Part shown: positions 33,001 to 45,000 of the stretch, one piece after another
Layout: each line of letters begins with the position of its first letter
Numbering within the stretch: the stretch's first letter is position 1
Made by a program: the position numbers
Assembly: GCA_051652765.1 (NCBI GenBank)
Contig: JBOFUV010000148.1
Span: 1-64,000 of the forward strand
Length of the DNA: 64,000 nt
Direction of reading: 5' to 3'
Source of the DNA: Microcoleaceae cyanobacterium
GTDB taxonomy: Bacteria; Cyanobacteriota; Cyanobacteriia; Cyanobacteriales; Microcoleaceae

Positions 33001-36000
33001 GACGATTCAGAACAAAGTGCCCTGAACAATTTGCGGTTGTGGGTTGGCTGGTTTAGGTGGCCAAAATACACCAAGTACAACCCACTTATTGTAAGGAAAC
33101 ACTGTGCCCATAAAGAAAAGGGTATCCTTACTCTCGTTACACAATTCATCGAGAAACTTACGGTGGACACTTAATGCTGCTTGGTGTTCATCACCTAGTC
33201 GAACTACTTCATTCAACCAAAGTACGCCCAGTTCCCAGTCCTCAATCATCGCATTATGAGGTTTGTGGCTGTCAGCGCACTCAAAAACATAACTAAATTT
33301 GTACGGTATTTTGCGAAGAGGTTTTTGAACAGGCCCGAAGAGAGTTAATTGATCGAACAGAGCCTGCCATTTGGGTTTCCATTCTGAATCAGCAGGTTCA
33401 ATTTTTAAATCAAGCACCCTTGTCGGACGCACAATACCAAGAGATACATTTTCGGAATCATGTAATGAGCATAATTCCTTTACTGTATAGACAGGTATCC
33501 GATCAATGATTTGACGGCGCGCGCTCCACCCATTTTTTGTTGATAGTGGTTCTCCTAAAGCTCTTATTGTATCTAGATTTGGCTTTCTACTTTCCTTTCG
33601 TCGATCATTGCCTGCTCCATGTGGTAGAAGATCAACTTCTATCCACTGATATTTACGAAATTGTTGATTTCTTGGTCTATAGCGGTAGTCTACGGGGTAA
33701 AGTCGAATCCATTCACCCTGCTCAGTTACACCAGCAGTACACACCAGTTCTTGATAACCTCTCGATGGATGGGGATAGGTCATCACAGTGATAAGAACTT
33801 TGGTTCTTATTTCTTGATTGCTCATACTGGACATCCTAAATGCTGAATTGGCATGTCAATCAAGGTTGTCAGATGCTGAGCAAGAACATTTCGATGACAG
33901 AATTTTGGGTCAGCTTCCATACAAACAAGAACACTAGGCTTAGATTTTAACAAGCCAGTTACATTCAGCAATGCATCCTCTCGTGAGGGAAGACTACTTC
34001 GATAATCATTAAAAAGAGACGTGTACTTATCGGAAGAACTTAGATCATCTCGTTCGGAACCAGGTATTCCTAGTTCGGGAAGATGCTGATAGTCTATTCC
34101 TAGAAAATTACATAGTCGTGCGAGTGTACTCTTATGAAAACCATAGCGTCTAGAGATCGGGTTGAAGCGAACATCGATTAGCTGTGAGATACCAGATTCC
34201 ATCAGAAGATTTAGAAACTCATCAACCGTTTTTCCTTCATAACCAGCAGTGTAGATAGCTTTCTGAGCAATGGGTCGTTTTTTCTTTCTTCTTCCAGGAA
34301 GATCACTGTTAACTGTAAACCAGGAATATTTGTCATAGACTAAATCAAGCAGCTCTTGACTTGATAAATTGCCATACTCAGTAGCAACATAATGGATGTC
34401 TTGAGCTACATTTCTAGGTAAATTAACATCGAACTTTTTCCCTAAATCCGTTAGGCTCCAACAATTATTGTTTCCTTTTTCTAAAAAGCCATTACGAATA
34501 AGTGAATCAGTTTCCTGATTTAGGGTAAAAGAGTAGGGTCCGTAACGATACGGGATGAACTGATAAAAAGTTTTTCCTCCGTGAGAAGCAGTTTCGTGAG
34601 ACAGCAAAAATGCCCACTTCATCACTTGCAAAGGAGATGCAGTAGATCCGACCTGCTGAAGAATCAGTAATAGAGCTTTTTGACGATGTAGCACTTTCTC
34701 ACTAAACTCAGAGTAGATTATTTATTCTACCTTCTCACAGGATAGCTGCGTTAAACAGTTTTATCTCTAAAGAGCATTGAAGACTTTTCGAAATTCCCCC
34801 GCGACTATATCTGAGAATCCTTGCCAGACGCTCAACAATGCCCATGCACCCGATCGCCTTTGTTTCATTCTAATACCGATAATTACTCTTATCGGTATTA
34901 GACTAAATCCTTGTCAAATCGATGTTTTGGCTTCTTTGGGGATTTTGGTATCATCCCAGCAGAACCAGAGAAAATGAGCAGACCAACCCCTGAATGCTAG
35001 TTCGACGTTGCCAACGCTGTTCAATTTCAGCTAAGACTTGAGGAATAGCCCGACGGCGCTTGGTTCATGGCTTGCAGTTTATTTTGCTTTACTTGTTAAT
35101 CATGCTATTCAACCTCAAAAGGCTCATGAACTCCCCCCTGAGCAAATCCCAACCGATGCAAGCGATGAATTGTCTGAATCACTCCCCGCGAGGACTAATA
35201 ATTAGCAATAATCCTAGGCTATTGTCCCAGACTTCGCATGTATCCTTTAATCCAGCAGTACTGAGGCTCAATAAATCCGGCTATACTGGAGTTGGAAGTA
35301 ACTCGACCCACAATGACATTGATTAACAGGAGTAAAACCTGATGGAAGAACTAAAGCATCTGGCAACTTGGGTCAAAGAGCAGCACGCAGCGGAGTATAT
35401 TTTAACCTGGCTACTCAATCAGCCTGGAATTTGGTGGTCAAATGGAGAGGTTTATCAAGCTGCCGTTCAGAGATCAGGCAAACAGTTAAAAGAGTATGTC
35501 AAAAACAGTAAACAGGGTGGTTTATTTCAAGGAATTGCTGACAAGGTTGTCAGAGATGAAGTTTGGGATAATATTGCGGTGAGTCTCGCAACCGTGATTG
35601 CTGCTTACCAAGAAGAGTTAGTAAAATTGCAGGATCAAAATCGCTTACGAGTCGTATCCAAGGTGGATTTAGAACATCAAGATAGTAGCTCTAATCCTAA
35701 CGACCCTTGGATTGGCTTGAAAATTCAACAACCCTTGCCGAATCCCAATACAGATGCACTGACAGGGCGTTAACCAATCAAGGCGTTAACCCATCAAATT
35801 GAATCAGGGTTGACATCGTTTATAGACTTCGCTGTTGTTCTAACATCTATTCAATGATGAGACGACTCACTGCTTTTTCAAGGATAGTTCCCGTTCCAGT
35901 CGGGCTAGGGTTGGCCCTGTGGGTTGCGTTGACCTTGAGTAACTGCACTTCTTCAACGCAACCTCAAGCTTTGACTGCTCCAGCCAATCCAGCAACAACT

Positions 36001-42000: not shown

Positions 42001-45000
42001 GGTAAATTGCAATGGAGTGTTAGCACCTCCTCAGGTTGTTGATTCTCAACTCCTGAGGCTCAGTTAGCTAGGGAGTTCAGCTAGAGATTTTTGGATTGTT
42101 CCTAATGGGAGCAATTCACCCACCTCGTTGGACTGAATCATACTGATATCTAATCTGGGAGGTTTTGCCGATCCGGCTACGGCGATCCGTTACCGCAATC
42201 CCGCTACGCTCAGAAAAATTTGGTAAAAAAACTCTGAACCCAACCTAAGTTGAGAGTAAGTGGTTTTCTGACCCGGAACAAATCTGATCCGGAAAAAAAG
42301 ATAAGTCTAGTATCTGCACCCTCTAGCTAGAAACAGTGGGCTTGATTTTCTTCTCACTGCTTCTTATTTGATTTTTCACAACTAACCCGTAGAACACCAC
42401 TTAGCAGAATAGAGACGCAGATGAGATACAGATACGTAAACATTCGTATTCTAGTCCTGAGTTCTCACTCCAAACAAGAGGGTTTTATGAAAAACCGGAT
42501 TAAAAGTGTAAAGTTTTGATGAACAATTGCTCTCTACAGTGATAGCCACCTCATGCCTTGATCTGAGCGATTGGGCCCATGGAGCAGCAGGCCCTTGCCC
42601 AATTTAACCAGATGAGTTTCCCACAAACTTAGGGATAGTCATGGAAACAGGGACAATGATACTGAAAATCTTAAAAGTTAACCACTCTTGCTCTGTATTT
42701 TCCAACATACAAATCTGTGTGTAATAAATCTGACAATGCTTGAAGTAAAAATCTGACTGAATTGTATTTTGACTCCACCTTAGCAGGCAGTTGCTTCATG
42801 ACTAAACTCTAAAAGGTTCAGCAGAAAGCGTCGTCATTTCTGGAGTTTTATAAAGCGAAACTAAGGGTAGAGCCATTGAAATATTCCAAACCAAATTTGG
42901 AATTGAACTTGTCTAACACGAGCTGCTTGTGCAGGAATGGCGGAGAACTAGCTACCGTTATAATCCAAAATAGACTTTTTGCGATCAACGACTCAAGCCC
43001 TCAACTCCCGTGAAACTCGAATCTCTGCTTAATCCTCTAACTGTTACCCTTGTTGGCCAATTTGCCCAACTTGCTTTAAATTGCATCACCCGTGAATATC
43101 CCCATGTTCACCGCTACTGGTTAGCAAATGCCAAAGATTTCGTGCCCCCTAGACAGTTGACCCCAGCATTCTACGGTTGCCTGGATTGGCACTCGGCGGT
43201 ACATAGTCATTGGACTCTAGTTCGGGCGATTAGATGTTGTCCTGATCTGAGCTTTGAACAGGAAGCAAGGGCAGCCATCACTCAAAACCTCACTCCACAG
43301 AAGATCGCCCTCGAGGTGAACTATCTCGAATCTCAACCCCGCTTTGAGTGTCCCTATGGGTTGGCTTGGCTCTTACAGTTGATGGCAGAGTTGACGGAAT
43401 GGCCAGATCCCCAAGCTCAAACCTGGTTAGCTCAGCTCAAACCGTTAGAAACAGTAGCCGTGCATAACCTCCAAACTTGGATGACGGGCTTAACGTATCC
43501 TGATCGCACCGGAACCCACAATCAAACGGCTTTTGCCCTTGGCCTAATCTGGGATTGGGCTACGGTCACCTGCAATCAATCTGTGATCACTCAGATTCAG
43601 CAATTGACCCAACAGTTCTATTACAAAGATTGTAATTACCCTCTTTATCTTGAGCCGTTAGGCTATGATTTTCTTTCACCCAGTTTGGCCGAGGCAGACC
43701 TGATGCGTCGTTGTTTTGCTCCTGAGTCTTTTGCGCTCTGGTTCACGGCGTTCCTCCCAAAAGTTTTAGATCAAAAAACCTTAGATCAACAAGCCTTAGA
43801 TCAGGATGAACTTAGATGGCTCCAGCCTGTTCACATTCAAAATCCTGAAGATTATAGTCAATCTCATCTTGAGGGCTTAAACCTAAGTCGTGCCTGGATG
43901 CTAGAAGGAATCATTAACGGATTGCCAGAACAAGATCCCCGAATTTCAACCTTGCAACAGACTGCATTAATTCATCGTCAAGCTGGATTTAATCCAGTTT
44001 CAATCCATCACTATGGAGGCAGCCATTGGTTAGGGAGCTTTGCAGTTTATTTAATAACTCAAAGAGGTTTAATCCCCTTAAAACGATGATTAAATACTAT
44101 GACTGAAGACTATGACTGAACTCAGACAGAACTTAATTACTAGAGATTGGGTGATCATCGCCACTGAACGAGCGAAAAGACCCGATCAATTTACTAAAGC
44201 TGAAGTTAGAAAGATTAAGCTCCCTCCCTACCGAGAAGAATGTCCCTTTTGTCGGGGCAATGAACACCTCACAGGTAGTGATGAAACGCTACGATTGCAG
44301 GAGGATGATGACACAAACTGGAAAGTTCGAGTCGTCGGCAATCGATACCCAGCCCTATCTTCAACTGGAGAGCGAGTTCGGTGTATTGATGGTATTTTTC
44401 GGTCTCTGTCTGGGGTGGGATTTCATGAAGTTGTAATCGAATATCCGCATCATCACCTCACAACGGCTTTGATGAAAGTTGAGGATGTTGCTAACATTTT
44501 AAGGGTCTATAAAAGACGCTATATTGAACTCCGAAAAGATCCTCGGGTTGAAACAATTATTATTTTTAAAAACCACGGTCGGGGGGCAGGAACCTCCTTG
44601 GAACATCCCCATTCTCAAATTGCCGCACTCCCCATTGTGCCCTACCAATGGCGCGATCGCGCCGAAGAAGCTATCCGACATTATGATGACACCGGAGAAT
44701 GTATTTTCTGTCGAACTTTAGCAGAAGAACTCGAAGCCAAAGAACGAGTATTTTGTGAGACACAACACTTTGTTGCTTTTATTCCCTATGCAGCTCTCTC
44801 TCCATTTCACACCTGGATTTTTCCCCGTCGCCATGCCTCTTCCTTTGATGAAATTACGGAGGTAGAAATTGTTGATCTGGCTGAAAATCTAAAAACGGTT
44901 TTAGCAAAATATTACTTCGGATTACATAATCCAGATTTCAATTACACGATTCGTTCTATCCCAACCTCGGAACAACGCACCGACTATTTTCATTGGTACA

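Follow-up and report, generated by a model that had tools for sequence, protein, structure and literature searches.

Which polymer is made by a cyanobacterial synthase whose membrane-fusion partner (MFP) begins with a degenerate EAL domain, and what could such a domain do at that place? The question is raised by positions 35854-42012 of the window, the 64,000-nucleotide stretch of contig JBOFUV010000148.1 from a Microcoleaceae cyanobacterium analysed here, where a PL14 polysaccharide lyase is encoded on the forward strand and a 705-aa Alg8-type GT2 synthase and a 922-aa EAL-TM-HlyD adaptor on the reverse strand.

The cassette and its synthase

The three open reading frames were found where the genome-wide survey's note had placed them (35854..36777, plus strand; 36896..39013 and 39244..42012, minus strand), and its Pfam rows for the three proteins were identical on rerun. 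The adaptor gene lies directly upstream of the synthase gene, and the lyase gene is convergent to both and outside any shared operon. Among the neighbouring genes inspected, the window's cassette has no precursor gene, epimerase gene or outer-membrane gene; no ABC, MFS or RND gene was found among the cassette genes, which also have no linked TolC gene. Of 301 genomes sampled from the order, 23 contain the synthase (E ≤ 1e-80), and each of these has an MFP-family match less than 3 kb from it on the same contig. Of 79 named cyanobacterial loci from many families, 71 have an MFP beside the synthase, and a PL14 gene is near it in 13 of 18 loci and in 52 of the 79, which bears out the proposal of a three-gene synthase-dependent module. 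Despite adaptor homologues in only 2 of 60 genomes of the earlier sample, the module is not rare: the approximately 700-aa synthase falls into more than 100 protein clusters of at least 50% identity, and genome_contigs holds 571 related stretches. Both genomes previously reported to have the same three genes were recovered (C551 as locus L041, C33 as L032), but in C551 an AlgD-type dehydrogenase gene between the MFP and synthase genes had been overlooked. For the whole three-gene variant of the alginate/cellulose secretion machines we found no description for cyanobacteria.

Residues 94-346 of the synthase (37976..38734, minus strand) form its cytoplasmic GT2 catalytic domain, as judged by Pfam (Glyco_tranf_2_3), alignment and an AF2 model. 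This model, built from a 72-row alignment, has a pLDDT of 85.4 and supersedes the earlier poor one (pLDDT 45, 3-row MSA); its fold is that of a processive membrane GT2 enzyme, the best Foldseek matches being hyaluronan synthases (E 2e-14), BcsA and chitin synthases. D193, D195, D300, D301, R343 and W344 are invariant in the 72 sequences. That the enzyme is of the Alg8 type, as already claimed, agrees with the names 'mannuronan synthase' or 'glycosyltransferase Alg8' given by JGI to several near homologues and with a comparison to an alginate-type cluster on a Jannaschia plasmid: over 474 aa the synthase is 35% identical to the GT2 (494 aa) of that cluster, whose other products include an NDP-sugar dehydrogenase, a ManC-type nucleotidyltransferase, a NosD/beta-helix protein and an ALGX-domain protein.

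After its last membrane helix (476-510) the synthase carries a truncated right-handed beta-helix (residues ~525-690; 36944..37441, minus strand), which is presumably periplasmic. Previously there had been a weak Pfam match of residues 529-603 (PF12708, E 0.022). The same hit was seen again, and the extension can now be described as a confidently folded beta-helix: a domain-only model has a pLDDT of 82.3 and finds 7chu (9.7e-6), the AlgE4 A-module (6.9e-5) and RbmB (1e-4) in Foldseek, and a 16-sequence profile matches in the PDB the RbmB lyase 9ozd (2.1e-5), 7chu (3.8e-4), AlgE6 5lw3 (9.3e-4) and AlgE4 2pyg (4.1e-3). By these models and profiles it is a real domain akin to AlgE epimerases and RbmB, with which it shares the right-handed helix and the N-terminal cap motif. 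Unlike these proteins, which have ~375 aa, it has only ~165 aa, is fused to a synthase and shows in the alignment neither a conserved His nor a recognisable catalytic motif. The extension is present on the synthase in 76 of the 79 named loci.

The adaptor and the probable ligand site of its EAL domain

The adaptor (922 aa; 39244..42012, minus strand), delimited by its reading frame, Pfam, NCBIfam, PDB matches and relatives, opens at a TTG, and translation may really begin at the ATG of codon 10. A cytoplasmic degenerate EAL domain (residues 26-249; 41266..41937, minus strand), recognised by Pfam (EAL, E 1.2e-42), by HMMER comparison with EAL structures and in the family table, is followed by a Pro-rich linker (residues 263-372, 20 Pro in 110 residues) and one transmembrane helix (residues 375-402; 40807..40890, minus strand), which hydropathy places almost exactly where a single span (375-400) had been noted. 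The remainder (residues 403-922; 39247..40806, minus strand) is a periplasmic membrane-fusion region of the HlyD/EmrA type with HlyD_3 and HlyD_D23 at 671-818, sub-threshold NCBIfam matches to EmrA, HlyD and DevB, a match to EmrA in the PDB (4tko, 2.3e-4) and, at residues 482-726, SMC-like coiled-coil matches (NCBIfam) in a long predicted coiled coil. Like Alg44, this is a single-pass protein with a cytoplasmic domain and an MFP-like part, but the adaptor is a long one of the HlyD/EmrA type and has no detectable similarity to the protein that takes the place of Alg44 in the Jannaschia cluster.

HMMER comparison with the structures of active EAL domains (RbdA and MorA) and the family alignment show that the EAL domain keeps E53, R57, N107, E139, E142, D169, K190 and Q245. 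The kept and lost positions are those reported before, and the degeneracy is family-wide. With Q39, the same residues are found in all 23 EAL-MFPs; measured against the RocR residue set as excerpted in PMC2952852, these include the equivalents of E175, N233, E265, E268, D295 and K316, six of the seven of the catalytic set, and likewise of Q161 and R179. The window copy has lost two of the four 'recognition' positions of RocR (D296 to Ser170, D318 to His192), His192 being unique among the 23 sequences, of which 19 have Asp and 3 Asn. Among orthologues the EAL is better conserved than the MFP part (51% vs 35% in L041, 44% vs 35% in L035, and 41% vs 33% in L032). An EAL of the same Lys type occurs, joined to a glycosyltransferase of the WecG/TagA family, in 13 further cyanobacterial protein clusters, which suggests a sensor module for polysaccharide enzymes.

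It should be noted that relatives of the adaptor can have a canonical receiver domain, or a receiver plus an EAL, at the place of the EAL. The MFP N-terminus is thus marked as a regulatory input slot. YdiV, BluF and CsrD have EAL domains that serve in regulation or protein interaction independently of a ligand. The domain here could likewise link the adaptor to some other protein and not sense c-di-GMP. In line with this are the loss of the D296 and D318 equivalents, the top NCBIfam match of the region, CsrD (E 1.3e-24, far under its cut-off), and the receiver domains of relatives, by which the slot is not tied to c-di-GMP. We nevertheless consider it unlikely, because the presence of nine site residues in 23 of 23 sequences is hard to understand without a nucleotide/metal site and because the WecG fusions keep the same residue pattern. 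A c-di-GMP receptor, for which the degenerate EAL domains of FimX and LapD are established precedents in the excerpted account of PMC7288161, is the reading we prefer, and the 14 GGDEF matches in the genome indicate that c-di-GMP is probably made in this host.

The lyase and the probable polymer

The lyase (307 aa; 35854..36777, plus strand) is assigned to PL14 by Pfam (Polysacc_lyase_14, 218 bits vs a cut-off of 27, E 1.6e-64). A hydrophobic N-terminal segment (residues 7-32, from hydropathy) with a Cys at residue 31 makes it a possible lipoprotein. Its closest solved relatives are named alginate lyases (5gmt, E 5.9e-34; 6kcw, 3e-12), and vAL-1 (3a0n) matches at 1.5e-7. PL14 comprises both alginate lyases and beta-1,4-glucuronan lyases, as stated in the part of PMC11890756 relied on here, and a lyase of this beta-eliminating family is kept in both of the two clades into which the synthases fall.

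In clade B a gene for an AlgD-type GDP-mannose dehydrogenase lies between those of the MFP and the synthase (E 2.7e-125 to GDP-mannose 6-dehydrogenase of P. aeruginosa, 1.3e-65 to the best UDP-glucose dehydrogenase), and Beta_helix/NosD proteins, some with RTX repeats, are also encoded; these cassettes are alginate-like. The window's clade (clade A) is without these genes. Could the cassette here nevertheless make alginate, that is, polymannuronate? An Alg8-type synthase, alginate lyases as nearest solved relatives of the lyase, the AlgD-type and epimerase-like genes of clade B and a GMD-like gene elsewhere in two genomes, G305 and the closest relative of the same architecture (G158), all speak for it. 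However, the window's genome, which is 99.97% complete, contains neither a GDP-mannose dehydrogenase (GMD) nor a beta-helix epimerase-like gene, and its one NDP-sugar 6-dehydrogenase is 80% identical to a UDP-glucose-type enzyme and about 35% to the GMD type. Of 14 genomes of the clade that were tested, this one included, 12 are without a GMD-type gene, and at position 163 the synthase has Gln throughout clade A (69 of 69 sequences) and Asp throughout clade B (16 of 16). Alginate is therefore quite unlikely here. The earlier caution that alginate may not be the product gains weight, and the lack of a GDP-mannose dehydrogenase makes a UDP-glucuronate (glucuronan-like) polymer more likely than mannuronate, although for the same reason any substrate is a guess.

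A probable non-hydrolysing switch in a probable secretion machine

The EAL motif of the adaptor reads EVL, 'DSF' stands in place of 'DDF', and Lys225 is found where 'AEGVE' has Glu; canonical EALs from the search that retrieved the WecG fusions have 'DDFGTGYS' and 'AEGVE'. With six of the seven catalytic-set residues present and 'DDF' retained in 4 distant family members, the domain might still be a weak phosphodiesterase, which as brake or trigger enzyme would lower c-di-GMP locally at the synthase. This is very unlikely, since the Glu of the RocR E352 position is missing from every one of the 23 EAL-MFPs (22 have Lys there and one has Thr), 19 have lost the second aspartate of DDF, and loop 6 (DFGTGYS) is degenerate, for example 'DSFTGQEL'. 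Moreover, E352 mutants are reported by Rao et al. (2008) to be nearly inactive. Loss of the general-base Glu and of the second Asp, with the first metal site and most ligand contacts kept, leads us to predict from the residues that c-di-GMP is bound without hydrolysis. FimX and LapD, in which a catalysis-dead EAL controls an envelope machine, embody the same idea, but as described in the excerpt of PMC7288161 the EAL motif and the metal ligands are gone in them and the domain follows a GGDEF; here the first metal site is intact, Lys occupies the general-base position, and the N-terminal EAL is fused directly to the MFP. That the adaptor serves some unrelated efflux or type I secretion machinery and lies beside the synthase by coincidence is extremely improbable, for even though its HlyD, EmrA and DevB matches are generic, the two are neighbours in all 23 genomes and in 71 of the 79 loci of many families, and the cassette lacks ABC, MFS and RND genes.

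As in the Alg8/Alg44 system of Pseudomonas and Azotobacter, an Alg8-type GT2 synthase stands beside a single-pass inner-membrane partner that combines a cytoplasmic domain for a second messenger with an MFP-like one in the periplasm, and the cluster includes a gene for a polyuronate lyase. The sensor there is PilZ rather than a degenerate EAL, Alg8 has no extra beta-helix, and the periplasmic part of the adaptor here is long (~520 aa), coiled-coil and HlyD/EmrA-like. AlgL belongs to PL5, the lyase here to PL14, and AlgK, AlgE, AlgG, AlgX, AlgI, AlgJ, AlgF and the GDP-mannose dehydrogenase AlgD are missing here. The same three-gene logic is found within the phylum in the cellulose system XcsA-XcsB(HlyD-like)-XcsC(endoglucanase) with TolC (PMC12430437, citing Maeda et al. 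2018): a processive GT2, an HlyD-like adaptor, a polymer-cleaving enzyme and an unlinked outer-membrane channel. In the account excerpted there, however, the PilZ sensor is on the synthase and not on the adaptor, and cellulose and a hydrolase take the place of a probable polyuronate and a lyase. The Sinorhizobium BgsA-BgsB-TolC system for mixed-linkage glucan, in which TolC was shown to be required (PMC13438883, in excerpt), also pairs a c-di-GMP-activated GT2 with an HlyD-type MFP, but its polymer is neutral and c-di-GMP is bound by the C-terminal end of the synthase rather than by the MFP.

Gene content, domains, residue pattern, synteny and the inventory of precursor genes are observed; how the cassette responds to c-di-GMP, whether its proteins form a complex that uses TolC, and what polymer it makes we infer as follows. 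The Alg8-type GT2 would polymerise the chain and translocate it across the inner membrane, the fused periplasmic beta-helix would take up or handle the emerging polymer, and the HlyD-type adaptor would form the periplasmic conduit, probably reaching an unlinked TolC-type channel by analogy with XcsAB-TolC and BgsAB-TolC; two TolC-family genes are present elsewhere in the genome. The lyase, probably a periplasmic lipoprotein, would trim or clear polymer like AlgL, BcsZ and XcsC. Binding of c-di-GMP to the EAL would switch the synthase on, as does the PilZ of Alg44 by functional analogy. This does not mean that an EAL has replaced a PilZ, as the phrase 'EAL instead of PilZ' had implied: of the 71 synthase-adjacent MFPs in the named loci 50 have no N-terminal domain and 21 have an EAL, so that the EAL looks like an add-on input, and since the machine would then work without it, it could be inhibitory rather than activating. 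On balance, the sequences make it reasonably probable that the cassette is a secretion module for a uronic-acid polymer, with the EAL of its adaptor as a non-hydrolysing c-di-GMP switch.

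The cassette and its occurrence

The cassette consists of the gene of a polysaccharide lyase of family PL14 (P0003; 35854–36777, forward strand; 307 aa), that of an Alg8-type GT2 synthase with a C-terminal extension (P0002; 36896–39013, reverse strand; 705 aa) and that of an adaptor in which an EAL domain, one transmembrane helix and a HlyD-type membrane-fusion protein (MFP) are joined (P0001, EAL-MFP; 39244–42012, reverse strand; 922 aa counted from a TTG start, with an ATG at codon 10 as alternative start). A gap of 230 bp separates P0002 from P0001, its upstream neighbour, and P0003 is convergent to both. 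The Pfam assignments in the genome-wide survey's note were exactly reproduced: EAL at residues 26–249 (E 1.2e-42) and HlyD_3 plus HlyD_D23 at residues 671–818 of P0001, Glyco_tranf_2_3 at residues 94–346 of P0002 with a weak match to PF12708 at residues 529–603 (E 0.022), and Polysacc_lyase_14 in P0003 (E 1.6e-64). The note's observation of a three-gene cassette was as a whole confirmed.

The synthase is found in 23 of 301 sampled genomes of the order (E<=1e-80), and each of the 23 has an MFP-family match within 3 kb of it on that contig; G162 and G254 have an MFP-family match and no synthase at this threshold. The EAL-MFP form occurs in 12 of the 301 genomes. All of 18 loci (17 relatives plus the window) have the MFP, and 17 have the synthase, the remaining contig being truncated; PL14 occurs in 13 of them, a nucleotide-sugar dehydrogenase in 11 and Beta_helix/NosD proteins in 5. 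A wider set of 79 named cyanobacterial loci, taken from the best 80 of 571 confirmed matches, comes from Lyngbya, Microcoleaceae, Coleofasciculus, Kastovskya, Leptolyngbya, Nostoc, Calothrix, Rivularia, Elainella and Pseudanabaenaceae; among these best matches an MFP was found in 71 loci (21 with EAL, 50 without a recognisable N-terminal domain) and PL14 within 6 kb in 52. It is likely that the three genes form one module for polyuronate synthesis and export.

None of the genes flanking the cassette in the window has a polysaccharide-export function or keeps its place beside the module in relatives; they encode an M16 peptidase, a D-Tyr-tRNA deacylase, an integrase, DUF488, DUF2891, GalT-like and PLD-like proteins and restriction-modification fragments. 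The integrase, DUF488, DUF2891, GalT-like and PLD-like genes were rejected as module members, none of them being conserved in the 17 related loci. The integrase, a tyrosine recombinase of the phage-integrase family (31861–32862), is separated from the cassette by 3 kb and two ORFs (one without Pfam match, one DUF488), and together with the patchy distribution (23 of 301 genomes) it hints at mobility of the module. Horizontal transfer is not claimed from the GC content, which is 0.47–0.50 in the cassette, but reaches similar values in nearby genes. Remnants of restriction-modification systems are found at 47640–51047 (consecutive ORFs with a Type ISP C-terminal specificity domain, a PIN domain and an N6-methylase/Eco57I-like domain) and at 22734–24211 (a MutH/MvaI-like endonuclease adjoining an N4/N6 DNA methylase). 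An ORF of 251 aa at 51730–52485, 10 kb from the cassette, lacks a beta-helix domain and is built mostly from RTX calcium-binding repeats (five HemolysinCabind stretches).

An Rfam scan of 34500–43500 (E<=0.1) gave no match, i.e., no c-di-GMP riboswitch was detected, and a scan for promoters and terminators was uninformative, the counts not being above those in shuffled sequence. A search of sequencing runs yielded one DNA metagenome run with a 0.05 share of words; no RNA run was listed.

The adaptor and its EAL domain

In P0001 a Pro-rich linker (20 Pro in 110 residues) leads up to the single hydrophobic span (residues 375–402), and the periplasmic part of the protein matches membrane-fusion families of the HlyD, EmrA and DevB type. 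With Alg44 it shares the single transmembrane helix followed by a periplasmic MFP-like domain (HlyD_3, HlyD_D23) and the position of its gene next to that of the synthase (23/23 genomes; 71 of the 79 loci from the best 80 of 571 matches). Alg44, however, has an N-terminal PilZ domain, whereas P0001 has no PilZ match and carries the EAL domain there. BLASTP revealed no similarity between P0001 and the protein that takes the place of Alg44 in the Jannaschia plasmid cluster, a proteobacterial alginate-type gene cluster. Among the MFP homologues there are also receiver-domain adaptors, a type found in locus L045 too, and one receiver-plus-EAL adaptor. Since the adaptor N-termini thus vary between EAL, receiver and none, the N-terminus is best described as a variable regulatory slot. 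Judged from these sequence comparisons, the EAL domain would be one of several occupants of this slot rather than a domain that took over from PilZ in an ancestral Alg44. The genome-wide survey's note had described PilZ as replaced by EAL; its interpretation is partly supported and extended here. The adaptors at L033:8230–10074 and L037:8736–10748 (614 and 670 aa) begin with about 100–250 residues without Pfam match, in L037 with a repeated motif at the start, and these stretches could represent another type of cytoplasmic tail.

The residues of the EAL domain were read from HMMER alignments to the active EAL structures of RbdA and MorA and from a family alignment, with the phosphodiesterase RocR as reference for the residue set (PMC2952852). 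There, activity of an EAL domain is tied to seven RocR residues: E175, N233, E265, E268, D295, K316 and E352 (PMC2952852). Six of the seven are present in P0001 (E53, N107, E139, E142, D169 and K190), the exception being the equivalent of E352, which is Lys225; judged by this residue set, P0001 would not be an active phosphodiesterase. The E352 position, which we take to be that of the general-base Glu, is occupied by Lys in 22 and by Thr in one of 23 EAL-MFPs, and by Glu in none. Of the positions that contact the ligand, the equivalents of Q161 and R179 are kept (Q39 and R57) and those of D296 and D318 are lost (Ser170 and His192); Q245 is also kept. At the D296 position, 19 of the 23 EAL-MFPs have Ser, Asn or Gln and four have Asp; at the D318 position, 19 have Asp, three have Asn, and the window's copy alone has His. 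Canonical EAL domains from the same search have 'DDFGTGYS' and 'AEGVE'. Orthologues resemble each other more closely in the EAL part than in the MFP part, e.g., 51% versus 35% in L041, the relative on contig C551.

Non-catalytic EAL domains in a nucleotide-binding role are known from FimX and LapD (PMC7288161). A first metal site that is kept and a general base that is consistently replaced would fit such a role also for the EAL domain of the adaptor. With 14 matches to GGDEF and one to PilZ in the host genome, c-di-GMP signaling is plausible. On balance the EAL domain is probably a non-catalytic c-di-GMP receptor that regulates the synthesis and export module.

EAL domains of this kind, in which the general-base Glu is replaced by Lys (Lys-type EAL), are not confined to adaptors. 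When the EAL region of P0001 was searched against shorter proteins, the nearest relatives (36–43% identity) were found in 13 cyanobacterial clusters, in which a Lys-type EAL domain is located N-terminal to a glycosyltransferase of the WecB/TagA/CpsF family (PF03808). The fusions are among the proteins P0154–P0167 and include Thermosynechococcaceae, Acaryochloridaceae and Stenomitos; beside them there are three stand-alone Lys-type EAL proteins. In 12 of the 13 fusions the general-base position is Lys, and the Lys-type EAL subtype therefore recurs on polysaccharide-synthesis proteins.

Synthase, lyase and proposed route of export

With a 72-row alignment a confident AlphaFold model of P0002 was obtained (pLDDT 85.4), which supersedes the poor model (pLDDT 45) of the earlier work. 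Foldseek matched it to the hyaluronan synthases from a Chlorella virus and from Xenopus (E about 2e-14), to BcsA and to chitin synthases. D193, D195, D300, D301, R343 and W344 are invariant in the 72 sequences, and P0002 has the DxD, GDD and RRW-type motifs of processive membrane GT2 enzymes, to which its modelled fold also assigns it. A PDB sequence search with the whole synthase gave nothing at E<=0.01. The label 'Alg8-type' is used because P0002 shares 35% identity, along 474 aa, with the GT2 (494 aa) encoded in the Jannaschia plasmid cluster and because several close homologues are named 'mannuronan synthase' or 'Alg8' by JGI. Further products of the Jannaschia cluster are an NDP-sugar dehydrogenase, a ManC-type nucleotidyltransferase, a NosD/beta-helix protein and an ALGX-domain protein. 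Alg8-type GT2 genes are likewise found on Rhizobium megaplasmids and chromids, including L129 (Rhizobium gallicum pRGM101b); their products are about 37% identical to P0002 over residues 56–460. A complex prediction for synthase residues 1–520 and EAL-MFP residues 1–425, both with alignments, scored 0.28, the mark being 0.32.

The C-terminal extension is common to more than 100 synthase clusters of about 700 aa and is present on the synthase in 76 of the 79 named loci from the best 80 of 571 matches, i.e., in essentially the whole cyanobacterial synthase family. Searched against the PDB as a 16-sequence profile, it matched the V. cholerae polysaccharide lyase RbmB (9ozd, E 2.1e-5), a phage pectin-lyase-like protein (7chu, E 3.8e-4) and the A-modules of the mannuronan C5-epimerases AlgE6 (5lw3, E 9.3e-4) and AlgE4 (2pyg, E 4.1e-3). 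Foldseek with the whole model left the C-terminal domain unresolved; the domain was therefore folded alone, which gave a right-handed beta-helix (pLDDT 82.3) with 7chu, the AlgE4 A-module (6.9e-5) and RbmB (1e-4) as best matches. This does not make it an AlgE/AlgG-type C5-epimerase. The catalytic motif of C5-epimerases is Tyr/Asp/His, and no invariant His was found in the 16 sequences; the domain has only about 165 aa, roughly half an A-module, and its profile alignment spans only AlgE residues 7–113. A full C5-epimerase was thus rejected, as the fold fits, but the full-length catalytic module and the catalytic motif do not, and the C-terminal domain is read as a polymer-handling domain rather than as a proven enzyme. 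In the model of P0002 the cytoplasmic GT domain is followed by three membrane helices, from which we infer that the beta-helix would be periplasmic.

At its N-terminus P0003 has a hydrophobic signal with a Cys behind it. With 218 bits against the Polysacc_lyase_14 model (cut-off 27) it is a member of PL14, and its nearest solved relatives in the PDB are alginate lyases. PL14 includes both alginate lyases and beta-1,4-glucuronan lyases (PMC11890756).

No AlgK/AlgE-type or BcsC-type gene was found in the cassette. Two genes of the TolC (OEP) family are located elsewhere in the genome, on contigs C45 and C113. The genome therefore encodes a GT2 synthase, a HlyD-type MFP beside it and members of the TolC family, as in systems of the Xcs/Bgs type. 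The cyanobacterial XcsA-XcsB-XcsC system follows the same logic, with a GT2, a HlyD-like adaptor and a polymer-cleaving enzyme, and a TolC outlet has been proposed for it (PMC12430437); for rhizobial BgsAB, in which GT2 and HlyD-type protein are combined likewise, TolC is stated to be required (PMC13438883). By analogy, TolC would be the outlet for the polymer of this module.

Identity of the polymer and implications

In a midpoint-rooted FastTree phylogeny of 85 synthases, from which truncated sequences below 600 aa and exact duplicates were left out, two clades are seen: A, with 69 tips including the window, and B, with 16 tips. In clade B a dehydrogenase is encoded in 14 of 16 loci, usually between MFP and synthase, and most loci also encode Beta_helix/NosD proteins, of which some contain RTX repeats or PPC domains; neither the dehydrogenase nor Beta_helix/NosD proteins were found in clade A loci. 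The clade-B dehydrogenase matches the GDP-mannose 6-dehydrogenase (GMD) from P. aeruginosa best (E 2.7e-125 versus 1.3e-65 for the best UDP-glucose dehydrogenase), and clade B is therefore considered alginate-like. At L040:1520–7987, L042:955–4110 and L038:12381–14048, clade-B clusters have genes for large Beta_helix/NosD proteins that bear RTX repeats or PPC domains and, in one cluster, for a GDSL-lipase-like protein with RTX repeats. These RTX/PPC proteins are reminiscent of secreted AlgE-type epimerases and polymer-modifying esterases.

The window's genome is 99.97% complete and has a single NDP-sugar 6-dehydrogenase, which shares 80% identity with a UDP-glucose-type enzyme but only about 35% with the GMD type; an AlgD-type dehydrogenase for the supply of GDP-mannuronate is absent from it. 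A GMD-type gene is missing in 12 of 14 tested genomes of the window's clade, the window's own among them; the other 11 are G050, G096, G247, G286, G217, G098, G057, Lyngbya sp. PCC 8106, L. aestuarii BL J, Lyngbya sp. CCY1209 and a Lyngbya MAG. Lyngbya sp. PCC 8106 and L. aestuarii BL J (loci L127 and L050) are culturable and share the window's architecture. The two exceptions, G158 and G305, possess a GMD-type gene that is not part of the cluster. G158 is the closest module-bearing relative; its GMD-like gene has as neighbours genes for a hybrid kinase, a histidine kinase of large size with PAS/GAF/Cache domains and a REC-EAL protein (strong match to canonical EAL, 264 bits), the group being located at 1010–9398 of locus L133 (G158:C45). 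In Coleofasciculus the adaptor gene is flanked by genes for a UDP-glucose-type dehydrogenase and for a member of the NAD-dependent epimerase/dehydratase family. The PL14 lyase is conserved in both clades, which implies a uronate polymer in both. For the window's organism alginate is an improbable product; a glucuronate-based polymer is the most economical assumption, yet only a guess. The clades are discriminated by only two synthase residues, at positions 163 (Gln in 69/69 of clade A, Asp in 16/16 of clade B) and 171 (Met versus Leu), a split that is possibly relevant, as a lead and not as evidence of donor specificity.

Pereira et al. (2015; PMC4594306) state that they found no PilZ-plus-HlyD_3 (Alg44) architecture in cyanobacteria, and Chrismas et al. 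(2016; PMC4971617) report several alg8 homologues without a clear synthase-dependent pathway, and HlyD proteins without PilZ. A full-text literature search, mostly at the level of titles and abstracts, yielded no description of an EAL-HlyD adaptor or of a cyanobacterial Alg8/Alg44 module. We rate the cassette as a synthase-dependent exopolysaccharide system with a candidate c-di-GMP receptor on the co-polymerase, a variant that was not found described.

Our joint reading, put forward tentatively and with some doubt, is that of a widespread cyanobacterial polyuronate secretion system, not found described, built from an Alg8-type synthase to which a periplasmic beta-helix is fused, together with a HlyD-type adaptor, a PL14 lyase and, probably, TolC. 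Chemically there would be two variants, an alginate-like one that has AlgD-type and AlgE-like genes and a GMD-less one that is probably glucuronan-like. The Lys-type EAL would be a portable c-di-GMP receptor module on the adaptor and on WecG/TagA glycosyltransferases, and the receiver an alternative plug-in at the adaptor position.

The cassette and its many relatives are a concrete candidate for the alginate-type synthase-dependent pathway that surveys of cyanobacteria could not identify, and in some lineages the cassette supplies a candidate c-di-GMP input without PilZ. The clades with and without GDP-mannose dehydrogenase constitute a natural experiment on the donor specificity of Alg8-type synthases, and the EAL, receiver and domain-less adaptors one on the regulation of such machines. 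Cyanobacterial polyuronates are relevant to sheath and biofilm biology and to metal binding. If the Lys-type EAL binds c-di-GMP, a further receptor type of exopolysaccharide synthases would be added to PilZ (BcsA, Alg44) and degenerate GGDEF (PelD), and the WecG fusions and other such enzymes would be marked as c-di-GMP targets.
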